A program made the position numbers and the translations under genes. A stretch of 64,000 bases of DNA. Origin: Candidatus Hodarchaeota archaeon (GTDB lineage Archaea > Asgardarchaeota > Lokiarchaeia > Sigyniarchaeales > SOKP01). Positions within the stretch are counted from its first letter, which is position 1. Every line of letters begins with the position of its first letter. The notes beneath the pieces were generated by a model, which saw only the letters and a program-made list of their open reading frames with translations, was not told where the DNA came from and did not search any database. The stretch covers positions 49,073-113,072 of the forward strand of contig JBHLKM010000015.1 in the NCBI GenBank assembly GCA_048886685.1, written 5' to 3'. This document shows, in pieces, positions 37,404-64,000 of the stretch.

Positions 37404-37445
37404 AAAATCTTAGCTCAAGGACGTATTTCTTCCCTCTTCATCCCA
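37404..37445. repeat. Repeat B remnant (degenerate copy of the 23S trailer)
   Basis: aaaatcttagctcaaggacgtatttcttccctcttcatccca resembles 63807-63847 aaaatcaaagctcaagaacatactccttcctactcatccca. Confidence 0.6.
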
Positions 37446-37473
37446 GTTCATATTAAAAATCCTCCAAATTAAG

Positions 37474-38697
37474 TCATGGACCTATATGACCCCTTTCTGT
37501 TTGAACAATAACCTTCTTTAAACCTGCCCCTTCTAAAACATTTTTTACTTTCAGCATTTCATCAATACTAGGTCTTTTTATCTCTTGATTACGAAAAATA
37601 GGACGATAATCGAGTACGGAAACCTGAATATTACGGTCAATTTGGCTTAATTTCACGCCCCATTGATGGATTTGATCAAAGCCTGGATAAAAAGACTTAT
37701 TGTAGGGTAGTCCTATGCCCACAAAAATTTTATCTGGATAATATTGATCTACGATATACTTCACAGCTGACCATGCATTACTCATGTAAGTTTTCACAAG
37801 TTCCATGTCAGAGATCCCAGTTATTTTTGAAAAAATTTCCTCATCATGAGACTTCAAATCTGGACCTATATCCGTAATTCCTGCGTTTATTAGGTCATCA
37901 ATATAATCTTTTGTTAGAAGGCTTGCATTTGTATCCAAGTGCAACCTTGCTTTTGGATCTTCATTTAGAGTTTTTAAATCCTCAAAAAATTGAATCAACC
38001 ATTTCCTATTGAGAGTAGGTTCCCCTCCAGAAATCGCCATTCGATCCACTTTATAATTTTTTCGAACCATTGTTAATTGTGCTGCTGCTTGGATAGGAGT
38101 CATTAATGTAATTTTAGAGTTATATGTGGTTGTAAAATTCTGACATGTAGCACAGCGAAAATTGCATCCCGCAGTAAAACACGCAACCTCAATATAAATA
38201 CCTTTTTTCTTTAATTGCCATGGTGTCCCCACACCGCCTACTGAATGTGGTTGGAAACCTTGAACACGTCTTAAAGGCTCAACATTTCTAGGAATAGAAG
38301 TTTGTATGTTTATACCCTTTTTAAGACCAGAATGGCATGCAGCTGTCATTTTTCCGTTTACTAAAACAGCACATGCATAACATCCTCCTGTTTCACAAGG
38401 AGCAAAAATCCCCTTTTTTGTTGGATCCTTTGTAAATGTATAACCTGCTTTAATTAGAGCTTCTTTAATAGTAATCTCCTGCGGAACTTTGAGTTTCTTG
38501 TGGTTTACAATGATTTTAACATTATCCTTCGAAATTTCAGAAATTTCATTGAATGCCATGGAAGGACATGCCGTATAACATGCTCCACAACCAATGCACG
38601 TTCCCTTACTGGGACATTGAATTATTCTAGAACAAATACCACAATTTTGGCAGATATCATCATTTTTTCTAAATTTTACTATTTCTTGATCAACCAT
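37474..38697 (-). CDS. Radical SAM protein (PflA-like) with N-terminal 4Fe-4S and 2Fe-2S-type domains
   Basis: CQNCGIC, CIGCGACYTACP, CETGGCYAC, GCNFRCATCQN, SGGEP. Confidence 0.88.
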   Translation of the reverse strand: MVDQEIVKFRKNDDICQNCGICSRIIQCPSKGTCIGCGACYTACPSMAFNEISEISKDNVKIIVNHKKLKVPQEITIKEALIKAGYTFTKDPTKKGIFAPCETGGCYACAVLVNGKMTAACHSGLKKGINIQTSIPRNVEPLRRVQGFQPHSVGGVGTPWQLKKKGIYIEVACFTAGCNFRCATCQNFTTTYNSKITLMTPIQAAAQLTMVRKNYKVDRMAISGGEPTLNRKWLIQFFEDLKTLNEDPKARLHLDTNASLLTKDYIDDLINAGITDIGPDLKSHDEEIFSKITGISDMELVKTYMSNAWSAVKYIVDQYYPDKIFVGIGLPYNKSFYPGFDQIHQWGVKLSQIDRNIQVSVLDYRPIFRNQEIKRPSIDEMLKVKNVLEGAGLKKVIVQTERGHIGP

Positions 38698-38906
38698 TTA
38701 TTATTCCACTTTAATAGTCACCAATCCAAGAAAAACCTAATATTTTCTTGTCTTTTAACTATTCAAGAATTGCTCTTATAAATATGATTACAGCTATTCA
38801 GGTTTCAATTTAAATAATTAAACATAACTTCATTAGGTCTGATTCATGTTTATTTAATTAATCAAGTTATTTGTATACATTGAATTTCTTAAAAAAGATT
38901 CAATAG

Positions 38907-39935
38907 ATGTTCATAAAAAAAATTACTTATCCAGAATTTGACCACTGTGAGTTATGTGAGTGGCGGTGTGGGGTAAATAGAAATAAAGGAGATTTAGGTG
39001 TGTGTAGAATCCGTACTCCTATTGTTGCAAGTTGCCAATTACATCCTGCCCCACCTCAATCATATACGATATTTTTAGCCGGTTGTAATTTTAGATGCTT
39101 AAACTGCCAAAACTTTTCAATTGCGCATTATCCAGACCAACCCGACGTGTTAAGAGGTTGGATAGAGCCTAAGAAACTAGCTGAAGAAGCTTTAAAGCAG
39201 ATGAACTCTCCTTTCGGAAGATTGATAAATGCTGATTATATTTTTTTTAGCGGAGGTGCTCCAACACCATCACTTCCTTATGTTATTGAGATTATAAAAG
39301 AAGCCCGAAAACTTCAACCAAAGGTAAAAGTTAATTATGACACTAACGGCTATATGACAATTGAGTCTCTTGAAAAAATCGCTAATTTAACAACTACATT
39401 TACTTATGATATTAAAGCTTTCTATCCTGAAACTTTTTCAGCTTTAACAGGGGCAAAGATAGAGCCAGTTTTAAGAAACGCTGAAATTTTAATCTCAAGG
39501 TGGAAAGAAAAAATCTGGGAATTCCGTATTTTAGCAATTCCTGAAATTGTTGAAAAAGACGAAATAAAAGCATTATCAAAATTCATTGCGAAGCTTGATT
39601 TTACTGTTCCAGTAAGTTTTCTTACATTTCGACCTAATTTTATTTTGGATGATCATATGGGAGCAATGACTGAATTCATGAAAGATATGGTTGAAACTGC
39701 CAGGAATGCTGGGTTATCAAATGTTACCTGGGCAGGACATGCTGGAATATCTGGTAAAATAATTAAAATTAACAATGAAGATGAAAATTTAAAAAATTTG
39801 AGAATTGAAAACGCAAAAATCGCATCAGCCTATGCAATCACACACGGATGTAAAACAATACCCCGGAATTGTAAAAAATGTTTCTATACTCATAACTGTC
39901 AAATAAAAAAATACCACCCTAAGAGAATTACATAG
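38907..39935 (+). CDS. Radical SAM protein (PflX/PflA-like)
   Basis: CELCEWRCGVNR, GCNFRCLNCQN, YDTNGY, C-terminal Cys cluster. Confidence 0.88.
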   Translation: MFIKKITYPEFDHCELCEWRCGVNRNKGDLGVCRIRTPIVASCQLHPAPPQSYTIFLAGCNFRCLNCQNFSIAHYPDQPDVLRGWIEPKKLAEEALKQMNSPFGRLINADYIFFSGGAPTPSLPYVIEIIKEARKLQPKVKVNYDTNGYMTIESLEKIANLTTTFTYDIKAFYPETFSALTGAKIEPVLRNAEILISRWKEKIWEFRILAIPEIVEKDEIKALSKFIAKLDFTVPVSFLTFRPNFILDDHMGAMTEFMKDMVETARNAGLSNVTWAGHAGISGKIIKINNEDENLKNLRIENAKIASAYAITHGCKTIPRNCKKCFYTHNCQIKKYHPKRIT

Positions 39936-40107
39936 CCTATGAGTACAACTCCATAACATCATTCACCCGAATAGCATCTACTTAATTAAAATATTGTTCA
40001 ATATTTAGCTTAGAAAAGAAACAAAAATTTGAAAATTAGAACATTTGGCTTGAATTAAAAGAAGATTAAGTAGAGAAAATCCCAATCTTTTTACTTTCTA
40101 CATCGTC

Positions 40108-40135
40108 TTTTCAAAGGAATTTTCATTGAAATCAG
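40108..40135 (+). repeat. Repeat A copy 1 (left part only)
   Basis: ttttcaaaggaattttcattgaaatcag. Confidence 0.85.
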
Positions 40136-40630
40136 GCTAAAAAATAAGCAGGGTGAGTTCGTCATCGCGAAAGATAGCTTAGAGGTAAACAAACCATTGA
40201 AAATAGAAACCTAAAGGGTGTGAAAGCTAAATCTTAATAAGGATATTCAACTATCTTAGTGTGAATATCTAAAGGTGAATCCAATATTCCCTGTTTTTTT
40301 AGAAAAGTAAGAATTAGAGAATTACTGCAAACCCTTGTGGATATCTCCCAAGAACAAATCTATCAAGAGCTTCTTAAGGAAAAAAGCGATAAGGAGCTTC
40401 ATGAAATGGACGAAAATGAGCTAATATTCTTAATTCTTGAGGTGTTAAAACGATTAGAAAAGAAAAAGATGAAAAAGGAAGTTAAATTAATTTATATTTA
40501 GCCATAATCACAATTGTTCTACTTCTGCTCGTTTCATGTTCTCTCACTTCCCAGTAAAAATTCTACGAGATATTTAAATGTCTCCTTCACATTCTCTCTA
40601 AACTATTGAATACTGTTTAGTTTTTCCATT

Positions 40631-40667
40631 GAATTTTCATTGAAATCAGAAGCTGAATTTACTTTCA
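40631..40667 (+). repeat. Repeat A copy 2
   Basis: gaattttcattgaaatcagaagctgaatttactttca. Confidence 0.9.
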
Positions 40668-40766
40668 TGAATATTTTTTTTGATAGATCCCTAGATTAAA
40701 TAAAACAGAATAAGATAAGATTTAAAAAAAAAATAGTTTGATGGTTAAGAATATCAATTAAATTAT

Positions 40767-40785
40767 TACTTGATATTGTCAAGTA
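40767..40785. promoter_or_regulatory. Inverted repeat TACTTGA-N5-TCAAGTA, candidate MarR operator
   Basis: Perfect 7-bp arms just upstream of the MarR-GNAT gene. Confidence 0.55.
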
Positions 40786-40790
40786 TTTAA

Positions 40791-41774: not shown

Positions 41775-41946
41775 AAAATTATTATTAAAACGGTTAGTCA
41801 ATCTGATTTTTATTTTCTACTAATTCATAACTACGCCTTTCACAGAATCTCTGACTTTCGTATAAAAATCCAGAGTTTTTGATAAACACTTAATGTATAT
41901 AAAAAAATATGATTCTTAACTACATTAAATCCATTTATAATGATCT

Positions 41947-42105
41947 ATGAAAATTGTATTATACAAGGACTATTTTGAGAAATATTGGAAGAAAAAAGAA
42001 ATTGAAATCAACTTTAAAGGATCAGGAACAGAAAAAGACCCGATTCTAATCGAAACATCAAAAAATGAAGGAAACCTTCTTTGCTATAGTTTCTTTCATC
42101 TTTGA
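41947..42105 (+). pseudogene. 3'-truncated gene remnant (GSGTEKDPILIE motif)
   Basis: Manual translation MKIVLYKDYFEKYWKKKEIEINFKGSGTEKDPILIETS…stop; ends 28 nt before repeat A3. Confidence 0.55.
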
Positions 42106-42132
42106 TTGATTATTTATCCAAAAATTTATATA

Positions 42133-42168
42133 AATTTTCATTGAACTCAGACGCTGAATTTACCATTC
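42133..42168 (+). repeat. Repeat A copy 3
   Basis: aattttcattgaactcagacgctgaatttaccattc. Confidence 0.9.
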
Positions 42169-42599
42169 GAGAAGTAGACTTTTTAAGCAAAAATTTTTAT
42201 TTAAAAATTCTTAAAAAAAATATTCGTCAATACTGAAAATGAACTCATCCTTCTATCATAAGGATAAGGAATCTATAATTCGTAAACTTTTTTAATTTTA
42301 TGATACTGTTTAGATATTCGATGGAATTATAATCGATTCAAAGCAATTTGGGACATAATTTAGTAAGGTTATCTGCTATTCCTATTAGCGAACAATCTTA
42401 TATCCCAATATTAAAAATTTCTCTCTCTTTTTGTTCTAAATCCTACAATTTCCCTCTTAATATAAATAAATTTATTAAAGTTGTTAATCTTTATTTTTAA
42501 GAATAAGAGTATATTACAACCATTTATATAAGAATTTTATATAGGTTCCATCAAAAATTCAAAATTTTCTAAATGAAAATTATGTAGAAGGAAACAATT

Positions 42600-45500
42600 T
42601 TGACAGAAAATTTATATTTTAAGAGAAAAAAAAAAAGGATTCTCTTGATTTCCTTTATTTTCATTTTTAACTTAATTTCAATAATCTTCCTACCAAGCAG
42701 TGTTATAATTATAAAAGATATAAAGAAGAGTTTTGATAATGTAATCGATGATAATACTTTTTTTATTCAAACTTCTTCAGGTGGTCCTCCTAATAGAGCC
42801 TATTTTAAATATTATAAAGTAATAACAATTGATAATGCAAAGGTCTCTGGTTCAGGAAACCATAAAAATTATCCTGTGTTAATTTCCCTATTTGATTCAG
42901 ATTTACATGATAATGTCCAACTAAATGGCGAAGATATTGCTTTTTCTAACGATACAGCATGGTTGGATCACGAACTAGAACTATTTAAAAAGGATTATAA
43001 TGGAACACACGCTCATTTGGTAACATGGGTAAGAATTCCTTCGTTATCCACTTCAACAGATACCAAATTCTATATGTATTATAGCAACTCCACTATGGGG
43101 GCTCGGGAGAATCCATCTGGCGTATGGGAAGGCAACTTCAAGGGAGTGTGGCATCTATCAGAAGACCCAACAGGAACAATCTATGATTCAACCTCCAACA
43201 ACAATGATGGTACATCCCAAGGTGTTATGACTTCAGGTGACCAAGTAGATGGTCAAATCGATGGAAGTTTGGATTTTGATGGAAATGATGATAATATTAG
43301 GATAACTGATGCTGCTAGTTTGGATATTACCTCTGCCATTACGGTTGAAGCATGGGTTAATGGAACGGGAAATTGGTGGAATTCCAAATATCAATATAGG
43401 AAAAAGATAAATATAACAAATAATTACGGCTCTACAGTTGTGGCGAATACTATAGTCAAGTTTACCGCAGACACAGCGACTCTAATTTCAACTGGCAAGC
43501 TTAGAACCGATGAGAAAGACTGGAGGATTGGATATTGGGATGGTTATTCTTGGATTGAGCTAGCAAGAGATGTTTATATTGGATGGGACACATCGAACAC
43601 AGAAACATGGTTTAGATTACAAGCAGATATAACTGATGGAAATTCGGATAACAATTATTATGTATATTATGGATATTCTGATGAGATTGGAACTCCTACA
43701 ACTTTAGGTCTTTCAGAAGGCATTATAAAACAACAACCTGCTGGAGGAATGGGATGGGACAAAGCTATAGATTACATGGATAACATAGAATGGGGACTTG
43801 CCCAAGCATATAGCTATTCACCTTCATACACAAGTTGGTATGTTGTTACAAAAATAAGCTGGTATTGCTCTCACGAAGATAGCACTACTTCCCAATTACT
43901 TGCTGGTTACATTTTTGACGGTATTAACAAGCTAGAGGGTGAGGAAATTACTAATGGAAAAAGTGCTACATTCACAGGGAGTTCAGTTGTCAAAAATGCT
44001 TATAATGATGCGGTATTCTCAAAACCATATCCTCAGCCAGAAAGAGGTAGCACTTACTATATGGCTCTCTTCCCCGATTCTAGTCGTACTGCTTCAATGG
44101 AACCTATTTTTTGGGCTATTGAACTTTCTGCTGGTAATGGAGCTTATTGGGTAATAAGATCGGGAACTTGGACTTTATGGGGAAGTAATGGAGATTTTAA
44201 ATATCAACTCTATGGATATGAAGCCCCAAATAATGACTGTGTAGCCTCTCTTGGCTTAGAAGAACAAAATGGAATCAATAAAGGGAATGCCCCTTCTCTT
44301 GCCTTTGATAATTCAAATGTTGCAGGGCTTATAAATAATAAAGTTATATTCGCCAATATTGGAGCTGGTTGGAATTATGTAGTCTTAACTTACGATGGCA
44401 CTAATCAAACATTATATGTCGATGGGGAATTAAGGGAGACCTCAGCACTCACTGGAGCTATAAACACAAATATCAATGACTTAATCATCGGAGATTTCTT
44501 CAATGGTATAATTGATGAAGTCCGCATTTCCAGTATTGCACGTTCTGCTGATTGGATTAAGACAGAATTCAACAACCATCATGAACCAAATCGTTTTTAT
44601 TCTGTTGGCAATTCCACCATGGTTGACAATATTCCCCCAAAATTTTCAAATTTAAGCGAAAGTTCAGATCCTCTAGAATTAGGTGATACTGAAATTATTA
44701 CGATAAACGTTACCGATCTATTTGGGATTAACCAAGTTTTGATAGAAAATGAAGGGGGTAACCACTCAATGACAAACATTGTGGGAGATCTGTGGCAATA
44801 TGACTCTTGGACTCCTGCAAATTTAGGTAATTATACATACACGATTTATATGGAAGATATTAACCACAATTGGAATTCTACTAGTGGCTCGATCAGAGTA
44901 GTTGATACTACGCCGCCAACCTATTCAAATTTAATAGAAAGTGCTGATCCTTTAAAATTAGGACAAAATGAAACGATAACCATTAAAGTTTATGATTCTC
45001 CAGGTTCAGGAGTGAACCAAACGATATTAGAATATGAATCATTGAATTATACGATGATATTTATGGGTGAAGAAACGTGGAATTGGAATAACTGGAAACC
45101 AACTTCCGAAGGACTCTTTCCTTATAAAATATACATGCAAGATATGCAAAATAATTGGAATGTAACAAATGGTAGCATTACTGTAATAACTACAACTGCG
45201 CCTGTTATAGAAAATCTGACCGAAAGTGCAGATCCTTTAGAATTGGGAAATAATATTACCATTGCTGTAGATGTATCTGATAATGAAACTAGCGTATCAT
45301 CAGTGCTAATCGAATTAGAGGGCGTAAATTATACAATGAGTAATATTGGAGGAAATACTTACGAATATAACTGGACGAGAAGCTTGGTTGGAATTGTTGT
45401 GTATACAATTTATGCAAATGATACAGGAAATAATTGGAATAAAATAACTAGTAGTTTTGATATTGTAGACACAACACCACCTTCTTTTACAGATCAAATT

Positions 45501-47450
45501 GAGAGTCAAAATCCATTAGAACTTGGAAATACTGAAGTAATATCTATTAATGCTACAGATCTAACTGGTATTAAACAAATAAAAATCGAATTTGAAGGAA
45601 GTAATCACTCGATGTCAAATATCGGTGGAGACACTTGGCAATATAATCTTTGGATGCCCTCTACTACAGGAAATTACTTCTACACGATTTGGATCGAAGA
45701 TAATAATAACAACTGGAATTTTTCTTTAGGTTCAATTATAGTTCAAGATACAATAGCACCTTTTTATTCAAATTTAACGAAAAGTGCTGATCCCGTGGAA
45801 TTAGGGACTATTTTAATCATAAATATTAATATTACTGATTTATCTAACATCAAACGAGCTTTAATAGAATTTGAAGGTTCTAACCACTCAATGATAAATA
45901 TTGGTGGAGATTTATGGCAATACGACTCTTGGATGCCTAACAAAATAGGTAACTATTCATACACGATTCATATGGAAGATAATAACAATAATTGGAACTC
46001 CACTAGTGGTTCAATAATTTTCCAAGATACAATTTCACCGGTTTATTCAAATTTATTTGAAAGCGCAGATCCTTTAGAATTAGGTGAAAGCATACTTATC
46101 AGAATTGATACTAATGATTTTGCAGGTATCAACCAATCTTTAATAGAATTTGAAGGATCAAATCATACTATGATTAATATCTATGGAAATACATGGCAAT
46201 ATGATTCCTGGACTCCAAATAATTGGATTATTTACCAATATAAAATTTATATCGAAGATAATAGCGGTAATTGGAATTTTACGAATGGCAATATTACAGT
46301 TTATGACACCACGCCCCCACTTCCACCTGTTATAACTATGGCTCCAAGCGGAGATGTCAGCGGGATTTTAACATTTGATTGGATAGATGGTTTTGATCCA
46401 TCAGGTATATCTTATTATATCTTAATTATTGATAATGAACCCGACCCGTTTATTACACCTGGATATGTATTTATATTTAATATTACAAATATAAGCCCTG
46501 AAAGCAGCTATTGTGAATTACCCGAAACTCTTCCGCAAGGAAAATATTATTATTTCCTAGCTCAAGTAGATGGGTTAGGACATCAAAGTAGCTATACTAC
46601 AGGAACATTTACTGTTGTCTCAACTAATAATAATCTTATGATTTATATCATTATTGGAATAACATTAATGAGTATAATTGGTTTAGTCTCTACCGCAATT
46701 ATAGTGAAAAAAAGAACGAAAAAAGATGTACTCCCTCAGAAAGAAAAGATTCCTTTTAAAATAGTAATTTCCCATATAAATAACATTTCAAGTTCGCAAT
46801 TTATTTCTGAAAAAGAAGGATCTAAGAAAAAATTAATAAAAAAAGAAACCGATAAAACATTTTGGGATGAAGAATTTCTAGATGAAAAAGAATTAGGCAA
46901 CCGATTAAATGAAATTAGATTATTAGGAGAAGAATTATTTGCTGATGGAGCTTATCTAGAAGCTCAAAAACAATTTGAGGAAGCTGAAAAACTGCTTTTG
47001 AAATTTAATAAAAAAGAAGAAGCATCTTTATATTCAGATTTAATTGCTGGAATTCAAGGATTAATTGAAGAAAGGGAAAGCAGATTGGCAAAGTTAGAAC
47101 AGGAAAAATTAGAGGGTAATTCCATGAATATCTTTAATTTGTATTATGATATAATTGAAATCTCAAGAAAGTTAAAAGATGCTGATGGTGTAAGTATGTA
47201 TCAGTCCGAATTGATTCAATTATTAAGAGATGGTAAAGTTGAATTTACAGATTTAGAATATCAAAGATTGAATTTAGAGGACCAAGCAAATGCATTACTT
47301 AATGATAATCTTTTTGAAAGAGCAGCTAAAATTTTTGAAAAATGTGAAAAAATTTCTCACTTTTTAGTTCGATCTGGAAACGATCCAGAGAAAACTAATT
47401 TAGAAAAATTTAGAAACAAAAAAAATGAATGTCTAAAGAAAACCAAATAA
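42600..47450 (+). CDS. Large membrane-anchored surface protein: DUF2341/LamG-like, six Ig-like repeats, TM helix, helical cytoplasmic tail
   Basis: N-terminal hydrophobic helix, WVRIP…YMYY, GIIDEVRIS, six ~93-aa ESADPLELG repeats, TM IYIIIGITL…KKR. Confidence 0.85.
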   Translation: MTENLYFKRKKKRILLISFIFIFNLISIIFLPSSVIIIKDIKKSFDNVIDDNTFFIQTSSGGPPNRAYFKYYKVITIDNAKVSGSGNHKNYPVLISLFDSDLHDNVQLNGEDIAFSNDTAWLDHELELFKKDYNGTHAHLVTWVRIPSLSTSTDTKFYMYYSNSTMGARENPSGVWEGNFKGVWHLSEDPTGTIYDSTSNNNDGTSQGVMTSGDQVDGQIDGSLDFDGNDDNIRITDAASLDITSAITVEAWVNGTGNWWNSKYQYRKKINITNNYGSTVVANTIVKFTADTATLISTGKLRTDEKDWRIGYWDGYSWIELARDVYIGWDTSNTETWFRLQADITDGNSDNNYYVYYGYSDEIGTPTTLGLSEGIIKQQPAGGMGWDKAIDYMDNIEWGLAQAYSYSPSYTSWYVVTKISWYCSHEDSTTSQLLAGYIFDGINKLEGEEITNGKSATFTGSSVVKNAYNDAVFSKPYPQPERGSTYYMALFPDSSRTASMEPIFWAIELSAGNGAYWVIRSGTWTLWGSNGDFKYQLYGYEAPNNDCVASLGLEEQNGINKGNAPSLAFDNSNVAGLINNKVIFANIGAGWNYVVLTYDGTNQTLYVDGELRETSALTGAINTNINDLIIGDFFNGIIDEVRISSIARSADWIKTEFNNHHEPNRFYSVGNSTMVDNIPPKFSNLSESSDPLELGDTEIITINVTDLFGINQVLIENEGGNHSMTNIVGDLWQYDSWTPANLGNYTYTIYMEDINHNWNSTSGSIRVVDTTPPTYSNLIESADPLKLGQNETITIKVYDSPGSGVNQTILEYESLNYTMIFMGEETWNWNNWKPTSEGLFPYKIYMQDMQNNWNVTNGSITVITTTAPVIENLTESADPLELGNNITIAVDVSDNETSVSSVLIELEGVNYTMSNIGGNTYEYNWTRSLVGIVVYTIYANDTGNNWNKITSSFDIVDTTPPSFTDQIESQNPLELGNTEVISINATDLTGIKQIKIEFEGSNHSMSNIGGDTWQYNLWMPSTTGNYFYTIWIEDNNNNWNFSLGSIIVQDTIAPFYSNLTKSADPVELGTILIININITDLSNIKRALIEFEGSNHSMINIGGDLWQYDSWMPNKIGNYSYTIHMEDNNNNWNSTSGSIIFQDTISPVYSNLFESADPLELGESILIRIDTNDFAGINQSLIEFEGSNHTMINIYGNTWQYDSWTPNNWIIYQYKIYIEDNSGNWNFTNGNITVYDTTPPLPPVITMAPSGDVSGILTFDWIDGFDPSGISYYILIIDNEPDPFITPGYVFIFNITNISPESSYCELPETLPQGKYYYFLAQVDGLGHQSSYTTGTFTVVSTNNNLMIYIIIGITLMSIIGLVSTAIIVKKRTKKDVLPQKEKIPFKIVISHINNISSSQFISEKEGSKKKLIKKETDKTFWDEEFLDEKELGNRLNEIRLLGEELFADGAYLEAQKQFEEAEKLLLKFNKKEEASLYSDLIAGIQGLIEERESRLAKLEQEKLEGNSMNIFNLYYDIIEISRKLKDADGVSMYQSELIQLLRDGKVEFTDLEYQRLNLEDQANALLNDNLFERAAKIFEKCEKISHFLVRSGNDPEKTNLEKFRNKKNECLKKTK

Positions 47451-47527: not shown

Positions 47528-47640
47528 CGATTTTAAGAAGTTGCATAATCAATGGGGATATCTCATCTAATACTTCTGGATTATTATAGATAGATAGTAC
47601 CTCTAAGAGAAGATCACACAATGAGACAATCGATAAATGA
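47528..47640 (-). pseudogene. Internal fragment of a TPR gene paralogous to 60531..62573
   Basis: Closely similar to about 61235-61347 (cgattttaagaagttg…taagagaagatcacacaatg). Confidence 0.85.
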
Positions 47641-47775
47641 GAAAGAATAAAAAAACACTAGAACATTTCTTAGCACAAACTCTTACTATTGAAAGTGAAG
47701 ACCAAGAATGTTGGCAAATATAAAGAATTTGAAATTATCTTAAAATTTAAGTCAAAGAAATAATAAAAAAATTGG

Positions 47776-47911
47776 AAAATCTTTGCTCACGAACATACTC
47801 CTTTTTTACCATTCCAAATACTTCCGCAATCCCTCAAGCCCTAAGCCTGAACCTTGTGCTCCCCTTTCGACTTCCACACACTCGTGCTATTGAGAGTAGC
47901 AGGCTAAATAG
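47776..47911. repeat. Repeat B1: copy of the 23S rRNA 3' tip plus trailer
   Basis: 47831-47911 matches 63881-63961 at 80/81 nt; also gctcacgaacatactcctt. Confidence 0.95.
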
Positions 47912-48785
47912 ATTTTTTCAGCTTTTTACTAAGAAAAATTACTACAATAAATGAAATACTAAGTAGTGAAAATAGACTATATCCTGGAATTCTTTCGGTA
48001 GTCTTAAGTTGAATTGTTATCGAAAATTCTTCTGTAATATAATTTTCTTTGCTAATGGTGATAATTCCCGTAAGAGTATTTGAAGTCATCATATGTGTAG
48101 GGTAATTAAGTATGTATGTACCATTAGAAGTTTCAGTAAAATCATAAGAAGAGTCCCCTATTGTCAGTATAATAGTAGCATTTAATACAGGAATACCTCC
48201 TCGAGTAGGATCAGTCAAGTTAATTCCAATAGGGACCACACGACCTTTAGCAACGCTTATTTGATTATTCTTAAAATTACTACTCAAAGAATATTCAAGA
48301 ACCCTTTTCATAATTATTAAAAGAACAGTCGCATTTTTTGAATCGTAGTTCTCTTTATCAAAAGTTGCAATTATCTCATACGTTCCAACATCTCTCGTTT
48401 CAGTCTCGAAATCTAACACATAATGATGATTCCCAGTTTCAATAAGAAATCCGCTGCCGCTGTCAATGGTTTCATTCAGATTGTTAAATTGCTTCCAAGA
48501 ATAAGAGGCATTACTTAATCCTGTTAATGGGACACCTGATTCATTTGTATAGGTAAATGTAAAATTAACAGCATCCCAAATAAAGATGTTCGTATCTAAG
48601 TGGAATTCTGAACTCTCATTTATAAGAGTTGGTAAGTCTGCTGAATATTCTGGTATCTCTATCTTAAAATTCATAAAACTGCCATTTATATTCGGTTGTC
48701 TTAAGTCTTTTAAATACACTAAACTTATGACATTGATAAAAAGAGATATCAGAATTATTGTTCTTAATTTCTTATTTAATTTCAC
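47904..48785 (-). CDS. Secreted Ig-like surface protein with IPGY-TM-basic C-terminal anchor
   Basis: Signal-like N-terminus; C-terminus RIPGYSLFSLLSISFIVVIFLSKKLKKSI. Confidence 0.8.
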   Translation of the reverse strand: MKLNKKLRTIILISLFINVISLVYLKDLRQPNINGSFMNFKIEIPEYSADLPTLINESSEFHLDTNIFIWDAVNFTFTYTNESGVPLTGLSNASYSWKQFNNLNETIDSGSGFLIETGNHHYVLDFETETRDVGTYEIIATFDKENYDSKNATVLLIIMKRVLEYSLSSNFKNNQISVAKGRVVPIGINLTDPTRGGIPVLNATIILTIGDSSYDFTETSNGTYILNYPTHMMTSNTLTGIITISKENYITEEFSITIQLKTTERIPGYSLFSLLSISFIVVIFLSKKLKKSI

Positions 48786-50390: not shown

Positions 50391-50448
50391 TTTTTCAAAG
50401 GAATTTTCATTGAAATCAGACGCTGAATTTACCTTTCCATTCCAATTT
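50391..50448 (+). repeat. Repeat A copy 4 (full)
   Basis: tttttcaaaggaattttcattgaaatcagacgctgaatttacctttccattccaattt. Confidence 0.97.
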
Positions 50449-52022: not shown

Positions 52023-52196
52023 TGTCTTTCTATATAGATGATTCTTTCCTTATTAAATTATAAATTAGCTATATAAATATTATTAAAAATAACGATATTA
52101 AAGTGTGAGGAATAAATAATTAAGACTTTAAATCATAAAGTTAATATTTTTTAGAAAACTTTTTCGATTCCGAATCTTTCTTGATTTTACTTTGTG

Positions 52197-52280
52197 TTTT
52201 CAAAGGAATTTTCATTGAAATCAGACGCTGAATTTACCTTTCCATCCAATTTTCACAGAAAATTGGGACAAAATTAAAAA
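52197..52280 (+). repeat. Repeat A copy 5 with extended right flank
   Basis: ttttcaaaggaattttcattgaaatcagacgctgaatttacctttccatccaattttcacagaaaattgggacaaaattaaaaa. Confidence 0.97.
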
Positions 52281-53455: not shown

Positions 53456-53580
53456 AATTTATCCCATATTTGATTCATTTGGGTTTAAGTGTTAAATAAC
53501 ACTATGGATTAAAGGTAAGGAAGAAAAGGTTTCTTAAAAGCCTTTTGAACTATAATTATAATTTAAGATTTTTTTATCTT

Positions 53581-53626
53581 TTTTCACCAAATTTTCATTG
53601 AACTCAGACGCTGAATTTACCTTTCC
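53581..53626 (+). repeat. Repeat A copy 6
   Basis: ttttcaccaaattttcattgaactcagacgctgaatttacctttcc. Confidence 0.95.
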
Positions 53627-54087
53627 TAACTTTTCTATATGCACTCGAAGAGTTAGCCTATGATATTTATAAAAATTTTGGAGGATTAATAGATACTTAT
53701 AATGGTAATATCAAACCGTTTAAAGGAATAGAAGACATAATTAACCAACATCTAAATATCTCGCCAAAAGTGAAACTTAATCAAACGGAAAAAGATATAA
53801 TAGAAAAAACAAAGTCACAACTAACTCAAACAGAGCGCGAGGTGATGAATCGACTAAAAGAAAAGTTAAAAGATTTACTTAAAAAGTTTAATGATGATGA
53901 TTTTTTTCCTTATCCATATATCTTTAAGCCTCCAAGTCCCCCTGGAGATGACGTGTTACAGGGGCAACTAAAACCAGAATTTATACCACCCAAAAAAAAG
54001 CAAGAATTTGAGCCTTATTGCAAGCATTGTGGTGCTGAACTACCTGCTGTACAATTAATTTGTCCTGCTTGCGGAAAGAAGATTTAA
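53626..54087 (+). pseudogene. 5'-truncated gene with C-terminal zinc ribbon (ORF track 53770..54087)
   Basis: Frame stays open with protein-like sequence (ALEELAYDIYKNFGGLIDTYNGNIKPFKGIEDII) back into repeat A6, with no ATG; ends YCKHCG…CPACGKKI. Confidence 0.65.
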
Positions 54088-54742: not shown

Positions 54743-54785
54743 TTCTTCTGTTATAATTATCTATTAAACATTTTTGTAATATAAT

Positions 54786-54840
54786 TTTTCACTAAATTTT
54801 CATTGAAATCAGACGCTGAATTTACCTTTCCATTCCAATT
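54786..54840 (+). repeat. Repeat A copy 7
   Basis: ttttcactaaattttcattgaaatcagacgctgaatttacctttccattccaatt. Confidence 0.95.
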
Positions 54841-54890
54841 GGCTTCTTGAAGTTTCTAATTTCCTCTTGCTGAATTTTAGAAGTTTTTTT

Positions 54891-55060: not shown

Positions 55061-55110
55061 TTTTTCAAAGGAATTTTCTTTGAAATCAGACTCTGAATTT
55101 ACCTTTCCAT
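55061..55110 (+). repeat. Repeat A copy 8
   Basis: tttttcaaaggaattttctttgaaatcagactctgaatttacctttccat. Confidence 0.95.
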
Positions 55111-55290
55111 AACATTTGAATAGATTGATAGTATTGTTCAAATTTTTAGTGGTAAATTAACCATTTTATTTGTAAATTTAGAATTTCACTAGCAAAAATG
55201 TTAAATTAGTTTTAAAAACAACTTTAACCTAATTATCATTTAACAAAAATTTTCCATGTATAATATGAATAAAAAATGAGATGACTATTT

Positions 55291-58014: not shown

Positions 58015-58182
58015 TTCTTTTTTTTTTCATTTTTGTGAAGTAAGTTGCCTTGTTTATAAAAACTTCTACTCTGATTTTGTTTAGATAGCATAGAGAAAGT
58101 AAGGTTTTATTAAGAAATAAGAAATTAGAAAATACATTAATAAAATGAAAAATAAAGCAAAAATACATCTCAAGAAAACTAG

Positions 58183-58219
58183 TTGAAATCAGACGCTGAA
58201 TTTACCTTTCCATTTCAAT
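58183..58219 (+). repeat. Repeat A copy 9 (left part missing)
   Basis: ttgaaatcagacgctgaatttacctttccatttcaat. Confidence 0.9.
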
Positions 58220-58494
58220 GCTAATTTGAAGACCTTGAATCAAAACTTAATTTTATAAAACTGAAATTAGAAATTTCTAATTTTGTTAAATAGATCTAAA
58301 TTTGTTTTAGAAATCTTAATGAGTTAAAACAGAATAAATTCAGTAAAGGTTTAAAGTTCATTCTAAGTTCAGCAATTAAATCTATTTTATTAATAGTTAG
58401 TACAATATTCATAAGTATTGAAATAATGAAAAGGAATTTTATGGTTGAGAAAAATTGTTTGAATCAAGTCCAATTACTTTAAATCAACTAAATT

Positions 58495-60441: not shown

Positions 60442-60450
60442 TTTTCTCTC

Positions 60451-60538
60451 TTTTTTCAAAGGTATTTTCATTGAAATCAGACCCTGAATTTACCTTTCCA
60501 TTCCATTTTCACAGAAAATTAAGACAAAATTTAAAAAA
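60451..60538 (+). repeat. Repeat A copy 10 with extended right flank
   Basis: ttttttcaaaggtattttcattgaaatcagaccctgaatttacctttccattccattttcacagaaaattaagacaaaatttaaaaaa. Confidence 0.97.
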
Positions 60539-62573
60539 TCTCATTGATCACCGTTTTGAGCGCGGGGGGCTTATCGAGCTCTAACATCTCACTAGTTTTG
60601 ACCGATTTTTCTAAAGCTTGCCAAATTTCCGAATTTTCCCTTATGGCTTCGGTAAAGCGTGATAACTTTTGCAACGCAGGATATGATTGCCCTTTAATAA
60701 CATAACATGTTAAAAACGGTTCTATCGGGTTTATTAAGATAGTATTTTCACCGATTCTAATTCGATCGATAGATTTAGAAAAGATTTCGTTACTGAATGT
60801 ATTAAAAGCAGACATAAATGAGCTAAAAAGGTTTCTATAATCCCAATTTTCTACGAAAGGATGACTAAAGTACGTAGACCCACCCTCACCCATAACAAGG
60901 AGTAATATTGGCTCCTCTTCCACTAACTCAGGAGGATCTACTGCCTGTTTTCCTTTTAATCGGTTAATGACCCCGTCAAAGGAAGCTAATTCGATTCTAT
61001 CTGCCATCGGAGCGTTTTCATACTTAAGTTTATCCCACTCCTCAGTTTTCTCAAGTAGAATATCGTATTCATTGGAAATCTTTTGTGCTAACAAGTTAAG
61101 ACCGTGGTCCTCTGCGATCTGTTGAGCTTGCATATATAAAGATTTTCCTCCTTCAAGATCCAATTGAATTAATGCCAACTTAGCTTGAAGTAATTTTGCC
61201 TCACCCAACCATGAAAACGAATGTTGGTTATCTGCGATTTTAAGAAGTTGAATAATCAATGGGGATATCTCATCTATTACTTCTGAATTATTGTAGATAG
61301 ATAGTTCTTCTAAGAGAAGATCACACAATGTAACTATCGCTAAAATATGAAATTGAGCGAAAACAATATCATGCTCAACTATTTGTTTTAATAGTCTTTC
61401 AGCATCAGTATGATCACGCATTCGGCTACTCATTTTTAATATTGATGCTTTTCCTAATAGATATCCCTGCTCAAATAATATGCTTTCATGCTGAACTGAG
61501 AGATTTTCTAATTGTTTTAAATTCTCTTGTGCTTGTTCACGGGAGTTGTTATCAAGGTTGATTAATAATAAGGCTAACAACGGAAATACCATGGATAAAC
61601 GACTTCCAATCTTTTCACCAAGTACCAAAGCCTGCTCAAAATACTCTATAGCTTGATCATTTTCACCTCCCTCCCTGCAAATTTCCCCAATAATCCGTTT
61701 ATTAAAGCTTAAATCAAAGTAATTTAAACTTTCTTCTGCTAATTTGGTTGACTGTTTAATATATTTTAAAGCTTTATTCAACTCACCTTTACTATGGTAA
61801 ATCTGCCCAATAATCCTCGTTGAGGCTGCCTTAATAAAATCGCTTATTTTCTCTATAGATAGGGACTTCTTACAAAATTCTAATGCTCTATTAAGATCTC
61901 CCTTAGCAAAATATGTTAATCCTATTGTGGAAAGAATATGTGCGATGCCGGTTTGAAAATCTAATTTTTCAAAGAGTTTTAAACTCTTCATGGCGTATTC
62001 TAAGGCTGTATCCAGTTCTCCTTTTTGAAACCATATGATGGCAATTAAGTCTAAGGTATATCCAACTTGAACGTCATATTTTATTTTTTCTCCTAGAGTT
62101 AAAGCTTCCAATGCTAAATCTAATGCAATATTATAATTAATCTTGAAAAGATAAATCCTAGATTTCAAATACGTTAGAAGGAATTTTAACTTAGCATTAT
62201 TAGCGGGAGATCCATTTGAAAGAGTATTAAATAATTCTTCGGCTTTTGAAATTAAATCAAGTGCTTCATCATGTTTTCCTAAGTATGCAATAACAGCCTT
62301 AAGGAAGAGTGCTTCAATAGATTCCGGAACCAATCCTAATTCTTGACTCATCGAATAAGCAAGTTCGCCGACTTCTACTGCTTCTTTCAATTGAGCTGTT
62401 AAACGATATATATTTCCTTTTAAAAGTAGTGCCGATAATTGATCTTTAGAAGTAAGTTCAATCTTTTTCTCAAAATTTATAACCATTTCGAGCGCTTCTC
62501 TTACTTTCCCGTTATACATGAGTTCTTTTGCGCAGATTAAATCCTCGGGTCTTGGATCGGACATCACTTTCAC
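60531..62573 (-). CDS. TPR-repeat protein with C-terminal longin/roadblock-like domain (paralog of 58495)
   Basis: Same architecture; shared LLQAKLALI, KISNE, CYVIKGQSY motifs. Confidence 0.85.
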   Translation of the reverse strand: MKVMSDPRPEDLICAKELMYNGKVREALEMVINFEKKIELTSKDQLSALLLKGNIYRLTAQLKEAVEVGELAYSMSQELGLVPESIEALFLKAVIAYLGKHDEALDLISKAEELFNTLSNGSPANNAKLKFLLTYLKSRIYLFKINYNIALDLALEALTLGEKIKYDVQVGYTLDLIAIIWFQKGELDTALEYAMKSLKLFEKLDFQTGIAHILSTIGLTYFAKGDLNRALEFCKKSLSIEKISDFIKAASTRIIGQIYHSKGELNKALKYIKQSTKLAEESLNYFDLSFNKRIIGEICREGGENDQAIEYFEQALVLGEKIGSRLSMVFPLLALLLINLDNNSREQAQENLKQLENLSVQHESILFEQGYLLGKASILKMSSRMRDHTDAERLLKQIVEHDIVFAQFHILAIVTLCDLLLEELSIYNNSEVIDEISPLIIQLLKIADNQHSFSWLGEAKLLQAKLALIQLDLEGGKSLYMQAQQIAEDHGLNLLAQKISNEYDILLEKTEEWDKLKYENAPMADRIELASFDGVINRLKGKQAVDPPELVEEEPILLLVMGEGGSTYFSHPFVENWDYRNLFSSFMSAFNTFSNEIFSKSIDRIRIGENTILINPIEPFLTCYVIKGQSYPALQKLSRFTEAIRENSEIWQALEKSVKTSEMLELDKPPALKTVINEIF

Positions 62574-62660
62574 TAAGTAAAAATTGGATCTAAAATAAGG
62601 GAAGAAGGATTTCCTTAAAAGCCTTATGTACGAGAATTTCGATTTCTGATTTTCTTTAGT

Positions 62661-62708
62661 TTTTTCAATGGAATTTTCATTGAAATCAGACGCTGAATTT
62701 ACCTTTCA
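62661..62708 (+). repeat. Repeat A copy 11
   Basis: tttttcaatggaattttcattgaaatcagacgctgaatttacctttca. Confidence 0.95.
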
Positions 62709-62729
62709 TGAATATAAAATTAAAAAATA

Positions 62730-62850
62730 AAATCTAAGCTCAAGAACATACTCCTTCTAATCCATCTCAATCTCATCCGTTTCCTACCAGCCAAAATACG
62801 ACCACAAACCCTCAAACCCTAAGCCTGAACCCTGTAATCCTCTCTCGATT
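62730..62850. repeat. Repeat B2: diverged copy of the 23S trailer
   Basis: aagctcaagaacatactccttc…ccctcaaaccctaagcctgaaccctgt is colinear with about 63808-63923. Confidence 0.88.
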
Positions 62851-62871
62851 AATTGATTTTAAATTAAATAA

Positions 62872-63696
62872 TTAAGAAGAAAGGATTTGTTTTATAAATT
62901 GTATACTATTAAGAAGATTTTTTGCGCTAGCTAACTCGATTACCAGTGCTCCTTTATATCCATAATCTCGTATTATGTCAATAATTTTGGGAAAATTAAC
63001 TTTACCAGTCCCTAAATCTGGATGAGTATCTGAATTCTTATCAAAATTTTCAACGATGTGCACATTTTTTATCCTCTCATGAAATCTCTCCCAGAAGACT
63101 CCAACATTCCCATCATTCGTCCATAAATGGGATGTATCATAAGTAATATACAAATCTGAACGATTTAGTTTAGAGAGAAAAAATTCAATCTCATCCTCAT
63201 CCAAAAATATATTCATCCGAAAATTTGGCATATTTTCTAAACATATTTTAACACCGTAATCAATAGTAGCGTTCAATAATTTATCAACGGAACCTACTAA
63301 TCTTTTTTTAGCTCTCATTCCAAGACCTGAGAAACCAGGATGAACCACCATAATTTCTGCTCCGATTTCCTGGCATATTTGAGCCGTTTGGACATAACAA
63401 TCTATTGATGATCTCGCGATCCAAGGATTACTTGAACACAATGATAAATCAAGAAATGGAGCGTGTATTTGTTTTTTAATAGAATAGGAATTACATAGTT
63501 CAATAAATCTCTTTTGACTCTCTTGATTTAACACATCTGGTGGTTCTAACACCACTTCACATATCTTAAAATTATTCTCTTCTGAAAATTCCAAACACTC
63601 TTTTGATGATTCAATTAATACGTCAATTAAATTAGTATATTTTCCCGAACGAAGACAATCTCCCCAATTTCCCGAAGAACTAATAGCTAATTCCAT
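62872..63696 (-). CDS. Sugar phosphate isomerase/epimerase (AP endonuclease 2 TIM barrel)
   Basis: IHAPFLD, VVHPG, CLENM, YDTSH, HPDLGTGKVNF, LVIE. Confidence 0.9.
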   Translation of the reverse strand: MELAISSSGNWGDCLRSGKYTNLIDVLIESSKECLEFSEENNFKICEVVLEPPDVLNQESQKRFIELCNSYSIKKQIHAPFLDLSLCSSNPWIARSSIDCYVQTAQICQEIGAEIMVVHPGFSGLGMRAKKRLVGSVDKLLNATIDYGVKICLENMPNFRMNIFLDEDEIEFFLSKLNRSDLYITYDTSHLWTNDGNVGVFWERFHERIKNVHIVENFDKNSDTHPDLGTGKVNFPKIIDIIRDYGYKGALVIELASAKNLLNSIQFIKQILSS

Positions 63697-63806
63697 TAAA
63701 TAAACCTCGTAATTAAATATAGATGTGTTTATTTTTTTGATTAATAATTATTAAAAATTTCCTATTAATCACGGATTAATGAGATTTATCGGTTAAAAAT
63801 AAAAGT

Positions 63807-63919
63807 AAAATCAAAGCTCAAGAACATACTCCTTCCTACTCATCCCAAACTTATTCTTACCAGTCAAAACACGCTTCATACCCTCAAGCTCTAAGCCTGA
63901 ACCTTGTGCTCCCCTTTCG
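63807..63919 (-). other. 23S rRNA 3' trailer, probably including the 3' strand of the pre-23S processing stem
   Basis: Purine/GC-rich segment right after the 23S end on the minus strand (GGGGAGCACAAGGTTCAGGCTTAG); pairing partner would lie outside the window. Confidence 0.55.
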
Positions 63920-64000
63920 ACTTCCACACACTCGTGCTATTGAGAGTAGCAGGCTAAATAGGTCGCCCGAAAGCTCCCTACGTACACCCCTACCTCACCA
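63920..64000 (-). rRNA. rrl: 23S rRNA, 3'-terminal ~80 nt (gene continues beyond the window; mature end approximate)
   Basis: Reverse complement TGGTGAGGTAGGGGTGTACGTAGGGAGCTTTCGGGCGACCTATTTAGCCTGCTACTCTCAATAGCACGAG fits the archaeal 23S terminal helices (GGGGTGTA…TT[CT]AGCCTGC…CAAT..C.CGAG), with pairings GUAG/CUAC and UAGG/CCUA and a UUCG loop. Confidence 0.85.

Follow-up and report, generated by a model that had tools for sequence, protein, structure and literature searches.

Additive or tandem genomic islands are known from the 3' ends of tRNA and tmRNA genes, for example in Alteromonas (PMC4898812). Integrons are likewise known, including archaeal ones (Ghaly et al. 2022, PMC9668308), as are CALINs, which are attC clusters lacking an integrase. 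In Xer-dependent dif modules (pdif modules, IMEX arrays), gene modules lie between short repeated sites and are moved by a housekeeping recombinase encoded elsewhere. The R1 and R2 elements of eukaryotic rDNA insert inside the 28S gene and carry genes for a reverse transcriptase and an endonuclease of their own.

The DNA described here, referred to as the window, is a 64,000-nucleotide stretch of a Loki-type (Promethearchaeia) Asgard archaeon. It lies on contig C15 of a 4.4-Mb MAG (G000) and ends within a 23S rRNA gene. The stretch between this gene and a conserved HTH gene is probably an additive gene-capture hotspot, in which new DNA is joined within the distal segment of the 23S trailer, with the newest block beside the 23S gene (probability roughly 0.7). 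A literature search on attachment sites at the 23S gene of Asgard archaea returned nothing relevant, and no paper describing this arrangement was found.

As in the tRNA and tmRNA islands, the hotspot lies by a stable-RNA gene, close strains differ in their cassettes, and the flanks are syntenic (PMC4898812). The anchor here, however, is the 23S end with its trailer rather than a tRNA. The repeats are mostly trailer-only and centred on a 17-nt box and terminator, the units are often single genes, and no integrase-bearing element was found in the window or the MAG. As in integrons and CALINs, a co-oriented site is present at the 3' end of each cassette, the genes run mostly in one direction, and additions occur beside a fixed platform site; arrays without an adjacent integrase occur in both. 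Unlike in integrons, the platform is an rRNA trailer, and no IntI is present (window 36-64 kb is without PF00589). Among the accession prefixes checked, the contigs found here are absent from the lists of Ghaly et al. (PMC9668308). The arrangement of gene modules between short repeated sites is shared with dif modules, and the only tyrosine recombinase of the MAG is Xer-like. With R1 and R2 the locus shares a ribosomal RNA gene as a safe and conserved landing site, but insertion here is behind the rRNA gene, and no enzyme of their kind was found in G000.

23S Gene End and Insertion Zone

The insertion zone is bordered by two features.

63920-64000, minus strand: last 81 nt of the 23S rRNA gene, its 3' end (Rfam LSU_rRNA_archaea positions 2908-2987, 38 bits, E 4e-9)
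36293-36682, plus strand: conserved HTH regulator gene (PF12840), left border of the zone

Contig C15 stops where the window does, 81 nt inside the 23S gene. Relatives have true 23S sequence of 360-1187 nt at comparable contig ends. An Rfam scan of the whole window gave zero matches at the gathering score, and a tRNA search of the window found none. An rRNA search (RF02540/RF01959) of G000 and five relatives also gave zero matches; it missed partial 23S genes that cmscan later found, and is therefore not counted as evidence of absence. All genomes compared are MAGs, in which the assembled 23S is partial and is without its leader and upstream genes. The G000 MAG has 8% contamination.

Orthologues of the HTH gene (77-90%) adjoin trailer copies in G017, G002, G004, G007, and G022, and the window genes at 31-36.7 kb (the HTH/ACT flank) are syntenic beside trailers in five relatives. 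The HTH gene is the ancestral neighbour of the 23S trailer. It is separated from the trailer by about 580 nt in the closest relative, G017, which represents an empty site, compared with 27 kb here. This makes window 36.7-63.8 kb an insertion zone specific to the lineage. A stable-RNA gene thus adjoins a region of strain-variable content with conserved flanks.

The approximately 27 kb between the 23S end and the HTH gene is composed of accessory genes. The cargo (36-64 kb) includes radical SAM enzymes, GNAT-MarR, LamG and beta-helix surface proteins, a methyltransferase, a HAD hydrolase, an M28 peptidase, a solute-binding protein, TPR proteins, and a TIM barrel.

Trailer Copies in the Window

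A trailer profile was built from 18 trailers of the genus and run on the window. It gave four matches (T0, B1, B2, and a relic), all on the minus strand. These are listed with the associated features.

63781-63919, minus strand: T0, primary 23S trailer (profile match 63999-63781, E 1e-61)
62872-63696, minus strand, as the 23S gene: cassette gene, xylose-isomerase-like TIM barrel, between T0 and B2 (PF01261, E 4e-36)
62710-62848, minus strand: B2, trailer copy without a 23S stub (profile positions 81-215, E 4.5e-19)
58148-58177, minus strand: possible trailer-end trace (T-run and half box), fused to A9, a right half of repeat A (24 of 30 bases equal to the T0 end)
47754-47912, minus strand: B1, 41-nt 23S stub and trailer (profile E 1e-37)
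47528-47637: fragment just beyond B1, 91% identical to part of a TPR gene (61235-61344)
37390-37449, minus strand: relic of the distal trailer block, box decayed (profile positions 151-210, E 2.3e-4)

T0 contains the box GGAGTATGTTCTTGAGC as a perfect match at 63816-63832 (minus strand), followed by a T-run. B2 is 78% identical to T0 over 134 nt, begins exactly at the 23S/trailer border, and has a perfect box at 62738-62754. An earlier note on this DNA had placed a diverged trailer copy near 62730-62850, beside the repeat A copy A11; B2 is this copy, and A11 abuts it. The note had also described the TIM-barrel gene as lying between two trailer copies. These are T0 and B2, and in each of two samples a Logan contig spans A11-B2-TIM-T0 (62679-63920). 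Compared with the single-copy orthologue of the genus, the TIM-barrel protein reaches at most 51% identity, and a second G000 copy on contig C16 is 49% identical to it. Since nothing in the genus exceeds 51%, the cassette does not originate from a close relative.

The B1 box (47785-47801) has one mismatch. An 81-nt segment of B1 (47831-47911) is 99% identical to the T0 region (63881-63961), and the stop codon of the ORF at 47904-48785 falls within the B1 23S stub. The fragment at 47528-47637 is a leftover of a duplicated trailer-TPR context.

The relic, first noticed at 37404-37445, is separated from the conserved HTH gene by about 700 nt. Its local alignment score of 24 exceeds every score among about 11,400 control windows taken from these 64 kb (maximum 19, empirical p<1e-4). 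It is a marker of the former trailer position. The trace at 58.15 kb, proposed beside the truncated A9, is weak: its 24/30 match has an empirical p of about 0.001, and the profile gave nothing there even at E<=10.

Two further copies occur on contig C2, flanked by ordinary chromosomal genes and unlinked to repeat A. The earlier note had counted copies unlinked to the array against its reading; these two are formally of that kind, and the evidence for serial insertion stands regardless. The box is perfect in four of the five G000 copies, while their trailers are only 72-91% alike.

Recurrence in Related Genomes

Trailer matches are present in 21 of 23 congeners, and 37 of 74 non-redundant related loci have a series of more than one copy. 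Within each of these loci, every copy has the same orientation (139 of 139). The 3' ends of the copies are constant (profile positions 206-225), while the 5' ends are graded. The 17-nt box is invariant over 142 copies while its flanks decay, and the T-run lies in the same constant 3' end. The most frequent kind of copy lacks any part of the 23S; overall, the stubs range from 0 to 361 nt. Co-oriented ORFs stop 8-200 nt ahead of 40 of 53 partial copies, and most units comprise just one gene, 0.4-1.3 kb in length. A direct repeat of the 3' flank of the RNA gene thus stands behind inserted cassettes, both in the window (T0, B2, B1, and the relic) and in the 37 related loci. In G001, G007, and G022, secondary copies are similar to the primary trailer of the same genome. 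A pattern match in the bacterium Jiulongibacter was discarded, as its sequence failed the trailer profile.

Several rounds of insertion downstream of the 23S gene, as the earlier note had proposed, are borne out by the G017 spacing (580 nt versus 27 kb), by cassette differences between strains, and by the genus-wide series.

Junctions and Polarity

L092 and G017 are 97.8% identical and differ by a 2.35-kb insertion in L092, which consists of three cassettes and is accompanied by duplication of a 59-nt box segment. One of the three matches the first cassette of L103 at 99% identity, yet is the second in L092. Among near-identical strains of the relatives, whole-cassette differences occur at the box, and the newest cassette adjoins the 23S gene. 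Co-oriented sites bound the cassettes, and additions are at the platform-proximal site, as seen from the order in L092, L103, and G017. Polarity and clean insertion are both taken from relatives, not from the window's own population.

Sixteen pairs of copies with only one flank in common were compared. Similarity stops at -8 to +3 or +11 to +45, counted from the box start. Given how the junction pairs were selected, a breakpoint could fall only between about -20 and +47, which places the crossover in a segment of about 60 nt and not at one base. The joins map to the distal trailer stretch (box and T-run). Recombination through the conserved rRNA end itself, as originally suggested, does not fit this position.

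No dyad symmetry beyond chance was found in or around the box; a tyrosine-recombinase core of this kind would be unusual. A dif-type layout, which has 11-6-11 inverted arms (PMC2958812), was tried and rejected: the best arms matched at 8/11 for repeat A (p 0.29 versus shuffles) and 7/11 for the box region (p 0.40). The attC R''/R' cores (RYYYAAC / GTTRRRY) were not found in repeat A or the box when read from the sequence, and neither has a supported hairpin. An analogy to attI had been drawn for B2 with A11. It fits the box of the primary trailer, but not repeat A.

Repeat A

A second repeat, termed A, is present in the zone. Eight full copies in addition to A11, all on the plus strand, were found by a repeat search and nhmmer.

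62661-62712, plus strand: A11, abuts the T-rich end of B2 (nhmmer E 1.4e-16)
58183-58219, plus strand: A9, right half only (nhmmer)
40108-40135, plus strand: left half only, 10-nt overlap TTGAAATCAG common with A9
40621-40667, 42125-42176, 50391-50448, 52196-52253, plus strand: full copies, intergenic (nhmmer E 1e-13 to 1e-18)
53580-53632, 54785-54842, 55061-55118, 60452-60509, plus strand: full copies, intergenic (nhmmer E 1e-13 to 1e-18)

The 273 nt downstream of A9 are found again on contig C20, where they follow a complete A. Junctions at repeat A behave like those at the trailer box. The 21-nt A core is restricted to one family.

It had been suggested that B2 with A11 may be the ancestral unit, to be checked by whether A is consistently found near the 23S trailer. 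This was not upheld. Repeat A is behind only 2 of 58 full trailer copies (those with at least 76 nt of 23S) and 16 of 76 partial copies. It is absent behind eight of eight primary trailers with verified 23S and behind all empty sites, and A arrays occur also at loci without rRNA. A unit of trailer and A does recur in at least nine loci. Rather than being the trailer's ancestral partner, repeat A is an independent junction element, the second in this zone.

A twin-hairpin fold of A was rejected, as it is without covariation (85.2% of cells paired versus 84.9% in shuffles). Apparent A-to-A joints in Logan contigs were not accepted as evidence of excision; their sides are short and possibly from other organisms.

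Search for an Enzyme or Element

With the exception of one Xer-like gene, no integrase, serine recombinase, HUH or IS110 transposase, or reverse transcriptase was found in G000. The Xer-like gene (315 aa, C2:183383) is the sole PF00589 match in the MAG, and there are zero matches to PF00239, PF01797, PF01548, and PF00078. The ORFs of window 36-64 kb include no PF00589 match and no virus or plasmid backbone gene.

G022 is the only congener with an integrase near a trailer copy. This genome has a module with terminase, portal, HK97-type capsid, and gp10-like genes, and a 391-aa integrase 1.5 kb from a copy composed of 147 nt of 23S and the trailer. The provirus was rejected as the agent; it is without a second box or trailer copy within 80 kb, a tRNA, or a flanking repeat. 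Homologues of its integrase are present in 3 of 40 congeners, none near a copy. In viral contigs the gapped trailer pattern was not found, and the 23 matches to the 16-mer box were due to chance.

Discussion

Under the favoured reading, incoming DNA would recombine inside the conserved distal trailer end of about 60 nt, which contains the 17-nt box and the T-rich terminator. Each new block would bring or leave its own copy of that segment, and blocks would therefore be separated by co-oriented, 5'-shortened trailer copies. The latest block would adjoin the 23S gene, with T0, B2, B1, and the relic as the four surviving marks in the window. Larger and messier events probably occurred as well, such as the illegitimate joining of the 41-nt B1 stub to a gene end and the duplication of the TPR fragment. 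The 23S stubs of 0-361 nt and the B1 junction within a coding end require such a second, illegitimate process. Repeat A, as the second co-oriented junction repeat, would shuffle cassettes between the zone and arrays elsewhere in the genome.

As to the enzyme, host machinery acting on a short conserved segment and a candidate site-specific recombinase appear about equally likely. A dedicated new capture system of Promethearchaeia is a tentative proposal with the odds against it. In such a system the box of the 23S trailer would be the platform site, the cassette 3' ends with their boxes would be the mobile sites, A would be a second class of site, and the recombinase would lie beyond the tyrosine, serine, HUH, and DEDD groups that were searched.

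Other origins of the copies were considered. Tandem decayed proviruses or plasmids could have used the 23S 3' end or trailer as attB through their own tyrosine integrases, since lost, in the manner of elements that target tRNA genes, with the copies as attL/attR scars. T0 and B1 bracket 16 kb by the 81-nt direct repeat that includes the 23S stub, and the tailed-virus module of G022 with its nearby integrase is consistent with this origin. It is nonetheless unlikely: window 36-64 kb has neither integrase nor backbone gene, the lone PF00589 gene is Xer-like and on C2, the G022 provirus has no second copy or tRNA, and its integrase homologues are rare and never near a copy. The mostly single-gene units, the variable stub lengths, and the lack of the trailer on viral contigs also argue against it. 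Retro-copying, in which reverse transcription is primed at the U-rich 3' end of the precursor rRNA, the enzyme switches template to an mRNA, and the cDNA is inserted, is far less probable still. Variable lengths of trailer and 23S would be copied, giving 5'-truncated, 3'-constant copies directly after genes. The graded 5' ends, the constant 3' end, the gene ends a few to 200 nt ahead of copies, and the B1 stub fused to a coding end agree with this. Against it, G000 has no RVT_1 reverse transcriptase, cassettes hold promoter-like intergenic DNA and opposite-strand genes, and the box segment is duplicated on insertion, as in recombination.

The earlier note had favoured DNA of related Lokiarchaeia entering by homologous recombination at the 23S end, with B2 and A11 as an ancestral attI-like unit. 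This is doubtful to about the same degree as the provirus origin. The commonest copies lack 23S and the junctions are at the distal box, although many secondary copies do bear 23S stubs of 40-360 nt that are possible anchors. When the trailers were split into proximal and distal parts, a mosaic was found: T0 is nearest to B1 in its proximal part and to B2 in its distal part, and the distal part of B1 is nearest to a C2 copy. The proximal part of B2 is 86% and 84% identical to the primary trailers of G016 and G017, compared with 80% to T0, a difference of only 2-3 bases over 45 columns, and the window copies are mostly closest to one another. The likeness of secondary copies to their own primary trailer in G001, G007, and G022 and the divergence of the TIM cassette within the genus also oppose this origin. 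So does the scarcity of A behind full copies and its absence from empty sites, despite the recurrence of the trailer and A unit. An assembly or binning artefact around a collapsed rRNA operon is the least credible of all. The contig does stop inside the 23S gene, the MAG is contaminated and has no assembled rRNA, and Logan contigs break at repeats; yet the same architecture is present in dozens of independent assemblies from various assemblers and studies. The copies are diverged rather than identical, all 139 are consistently oriented, and one contig spans A11-B2-TIM-T0 in two samples.

The hotspot reading has the end of the 23S operon, a universal, highly conserved, and heavily transcribed locus, repeatedly taking up accessory genes, seemingly without an integrase. 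Because spare rRNA tails in the same direction mark the joins, the rRNA gene end would be a reusable docking site. If a dedicated system were involved, it would be an integron-like machine on the rRNA operon in the closest relatives of eukaryotes. The 17-nt box and the 21-nt A core can serve as handles for finding arrays, measuring strain turnover, and searching for a site-binding protein. The repeats are also the reason why rRNA-adjacent MAG contigs break and vary, and Logan contigs break at every one of them.

Trailer Copies in the Window

The window (C15:49073-113072) stops where its contig stops. The source MAG, 4.4 Mb in size and 30% G+C, contains neither an assembled 16S nor an assembled 23S. 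At the end of the window, 81 nucleotides on the minus strand (63920-64000) align with the 3' end of the archaeal LSU model. The same type of contig end is found in eight relatives, where 360 to 1187 nucleotides of true 23S are followed by the same trailer. Because of these ends, the window's primary trailer (T0) is taken as the real trailer of a 23S gene which the assembler could not cross. In the 23S ends of relatives at loci L005 and L007, about 625 nucleotides span only 426 positions of the LSU model, which points to an insertion of approximately 200 nucleotides in the 23S 3' domain of these archaea.

Eighteen trailers of the genus were used to build a profile, which was searched against the window.

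Matches of the genus trailer profile in the window
63999-63781, minus strand, T0 (primary trailer), E = 1e-61
47912-47754, minus strand, B1 (secondary copy), E = 1e-37
62848-62710, minus strand, B2 (secondary copy), E = 4.5e-19
37449-37390, minus strand, relic (secondary copy), E = 2.3e-4

The earlier note had described a series of trailer copies here. B1, B2, and the relic are all recovered by the profile, on the minus strand like T0. The last member of that series, a trace beside A9 (a copy of the second repeat, repeat A), has an empirical p of about 0.001 and is missed by the genus profile; it is a weak candidate for a trailer remnant. The recurrence of the trailer at 62.7 kb (B2) and 47.8 kb (B1) was found by repeat search and blastn. 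In the alignment, T0 and B1 are 99% identical over 81 nucleotides, composed of 41 nucleotides of 23S and the first 40 nucleotides of the trailer, and are divergent beyond. B2 starts at the exact 23S/trailer border. The relic outscores all of approximately 11,400 control windows drawn from the same sequence.

Two further trailer copies are present on contig C2 of the same genome, with attached pieces of 23S (stubs) of 110 and 13 nucleotides. They lie on either side of a DUF4760 gene (locus L001, G000:C2:280000-299999, positions 9124-10458). The copy with the 110-nucleotide stub adjoins a Ras-family GTPase gene from which the first 77 residues or so are missing; in the congener G007, an intact Ras-family gene follows the primary trailer. 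About 60 nucleotides past the end of B1, a 24-nucleotide stretch (47674-47697) shares 20 of 24 bases with the 23S tip (E = 3, not significant alone) and could be a further decayed 23S stub.

Distribution and Shape of the Trailer Arrays

The 23S-anchored series of copies is a general pattern. T0 has matches in 21 of 23 congeners, many of them in series, and a gapped trailer pattern search found 35 genome stretches and 34 metagenome stretches. More than one copy is present in 37 of the 74 non-redundant loci, and all 139 copies of those 37 loci are co-oriented within their own locus. One metagenome contig of 8.8 kb contains ten trailer copies.

The copies share a 3' end (profile positions 206-225), while the 5' ends are graded, from 361 nucleotides of 23S down to the final 50 nucleotides of the trailer. 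Within the constant part, a 17-nucleotide box, GGAGTATGTTCTTGAGC, precedes a T-run. Across 142 distinct copies the box hardly varies, while its flanks have decayed. It is perfect in four copies of the source genome and has one mismatch in a fifth, in trailers that are only 72-91% alike. A co-oriented open frame ends 8 to 200 nucleotides ahead of the box in 40 of 53 partial copies.

Across all loci, 12 hits, B2 among them, begin right at the 23S/trailer border (profile positions 79-85), versus about 4 expected from neighboring bins; the 12 include two pairs that come from one contig retrieved twice. This small excess may be a local-alignment bias toward the conserved proximal block.

Insertion Zone

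The window genes at 31-36.7 kb, which include an ACT-domain gene, a 166-aa gene, and an HTH regulator (36293-36682), are syntenic in five relatives and stand beside trailer copies there. In G017, the closest relative, the distance from the end of the HTH gene to the end of the trailer is approximately 580 nucleotides with nothing between, versus 27 kb between the HTH gene and the trailer here. The relic is about 700 nucleotides from the HTH gene, where an old trailer would be expected. The stretch between the HTH gene and the 23S trailer is an insertion zone. Repeated insertion downstream of the 23S, as the earlier note had proposed, is borne out by this difference in length and by an insertion at the box segment in locus L092 (described below).

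The inserted genes are ordinary accessory genes. They encode two radical SAM enzymes, a GNAT-MarR protein, a 1616-aa LamG surface protein, a beta-helix protein, a methyltransferase, a HAD hydrolase, an M28 peptidase, a solute-binding protein, two TPR proteins, and a TIM barrel. No integrase or virus gene was found among the inserted genes of the zone.

Junctions and Polarity

L092 and G017 are 97.8% identical over the 23S end and trailer. Relative to G017, L092 contains a 2.35-kb insert of three cassettes located exactly at the box segment, and a box/T-run stretch of 59 nucleotides flanks the insert on either side. The first cassette behind the primary trailer of L103 has a 99% identical counterpart among these three cassettes. 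In L092 another cassette separates that counterpart from the 23S, so the newest addition is nearest the 23S.

Among all copies, 16 pairs have one flank in common and the other flank different. Counted from the first base of the box, the common downstream sequence begins between -8 and +3, and the common upstream sequence stops between +11 and +45. The way in which pairs were selected allows breakpoints only from about -20 to +47; the exchange is therefore placed in the box/T-run segment of approximately 60 nucleotides, and no finer.

Not all junctions are of this form. The 23S stub of B1 begins within the last codons of an ORF (47904-48785), a 110-nucleotide piece of a TPR gene is repeated just past B1, and stub lengths vary from 0 to 361 nucleotides. 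Such features suggest that the box-centered exchange is accompanied by occasional illegitimate joins and segmental duplication.

Repeat A

Repeat A has a core of approximately 58 nucleotides and is present in 46 copies in the source genome. On at least eight contigs the copies form co-oriented clusters, which often lie at contig ends. The 21-nucleotide center (up to 2 mismatches) occurs only in family f1, where genus g1 has it in 48 of 51 genomes and genus g22 in 36 of 42; it has no matches in other families, and the reversed control gave none. Some pairs of copies have only one flank in common, with boundaries inside the core. The window half-sites at 40108-40135 and 58183-58219 (A9) overlap in TTGAAATCAG. 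Repeat A is a second junction element.

The earlier note had suggested that B2 with the adjacent repeat copy A11 may be an ancestral unit and had asked whether repeat A is consistently near the 23S trailer. It is not: a copy lies within 90 nucleotides after 16 of 76 partial trailer copies, versus 2 of 58 copies with at least 76 nucleotides of 23S. No copy comes after any of the eight verified primary trailers or any empty site. The combination of trailer and repeat A is therefore a recurrent junction and not an ancestral unit.

Some copies share a hairpin extension on the 3' side, CCAATTTTC-ACA-GAAAATTGG. A fold proposed for repeat A was set aside for want of covariation support. Read on the plus strand, the repeat core and the box both hold GCT[G/C]AA, 9 nucleotides, and TCCAT, an apparent likeness noted by eye.

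Blocks of 80 to 120 nucleotides lie left of some copies, between the repeat and a minus-strand gene start (window 62583-62660 and 53501-53580). At the corresponding place next to copies on C19, C34, C2, C5, C12, and C7, the sequence is 77-87% identical to theirs; genes that are unrelated thus have a promoter-like block in common. Two window segments have counterparts in other arrays of the source genome: 58183-58455, beginning exactly at the A9 core, matches C20:2723-2995 at 89%, and 54271-54519 matches C19:84074-83826 at 95%.

Origin of the Copies

Secondary copies in the congeners G001, G007, and G022 resemble their own primary trailers. The window copies form a mosaic, in which proximal T0 resembles B1, distal T0 resembles B2, and distal B1 resembles a C2 copy. 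B2 is closer to the trailers of G016 and G017 by only 2-3 bases. The earlier note had suggested related Lokiarchaeia as possible donors of the inserted DNA; these comparisons point to no clear foreign donor. The TIM protein, encoded between T0 and B2 (62872-63696), reaches no more than 51% identity with the genus's single-copy orthologue, the genome's own copy on C16 included, and is therefore an old or distant acquisition.

Candidate Enzymes

The MAG has one PF00589 match, a 315-aa Xer-like gene common to every congener. No resolvase, Y1 HUH transposase, IS110 transposase, or RVT_1 match was found in the MAG, and neither the box nor repeat A contains dif-like arms. In G022, a tailed-virus module with a 391-aa tyrosine integrase (locus L028, G022:C28:138000-157999, positions 879-12917) lies 1.5 kb from a lone copy of 147 nucleotides of 23S plus trailer. 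The module has weak Pfam matches to an HK97-gp10-like protein, an HK97-type capsid, a portal, and a large terminase. Neither a second copy or box nor a tRNA turned up within 80 kb of this provirus region. The integrase is rare in the genus and is a lead only.

Comparison with Known Systems

In additive flexible genomic islands at tRNA and tmRNA genes, a repeated portion of the RNA gene marks the additions (PMC4898812), and the layout of the trailer array matches that of these islands. There is also a resemblance to integron arrays that lack an integrase (PMC9668308); unlike an integron, the trailer array has no IntI and no attC features. The array contigs are absent from the lists of PMC9668308 for the accession prefixes searched, and no description of a 23S-anchored array came up in the literature searches.

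Other Repeats

The 1616-aa LamG/DUF2341 surface protein gene (42600-47450) holds 279-nucleotide tandem repeat units at 44.6-46.3 kb. Its many paralogues, with nucleotide identities of 65-75%, lie on C19, C22, C32, C39, C6, C16, C20, and C4. Other genes of the zone, namely the 293-aa gene, the beta-helix gene, and the TPR genes, are likewise members of expanded families. A 194-nucleotide direct repeat with 84% identity is located at 16779-16972 and 17977-18170, with the two copies 1.2 kb apart.
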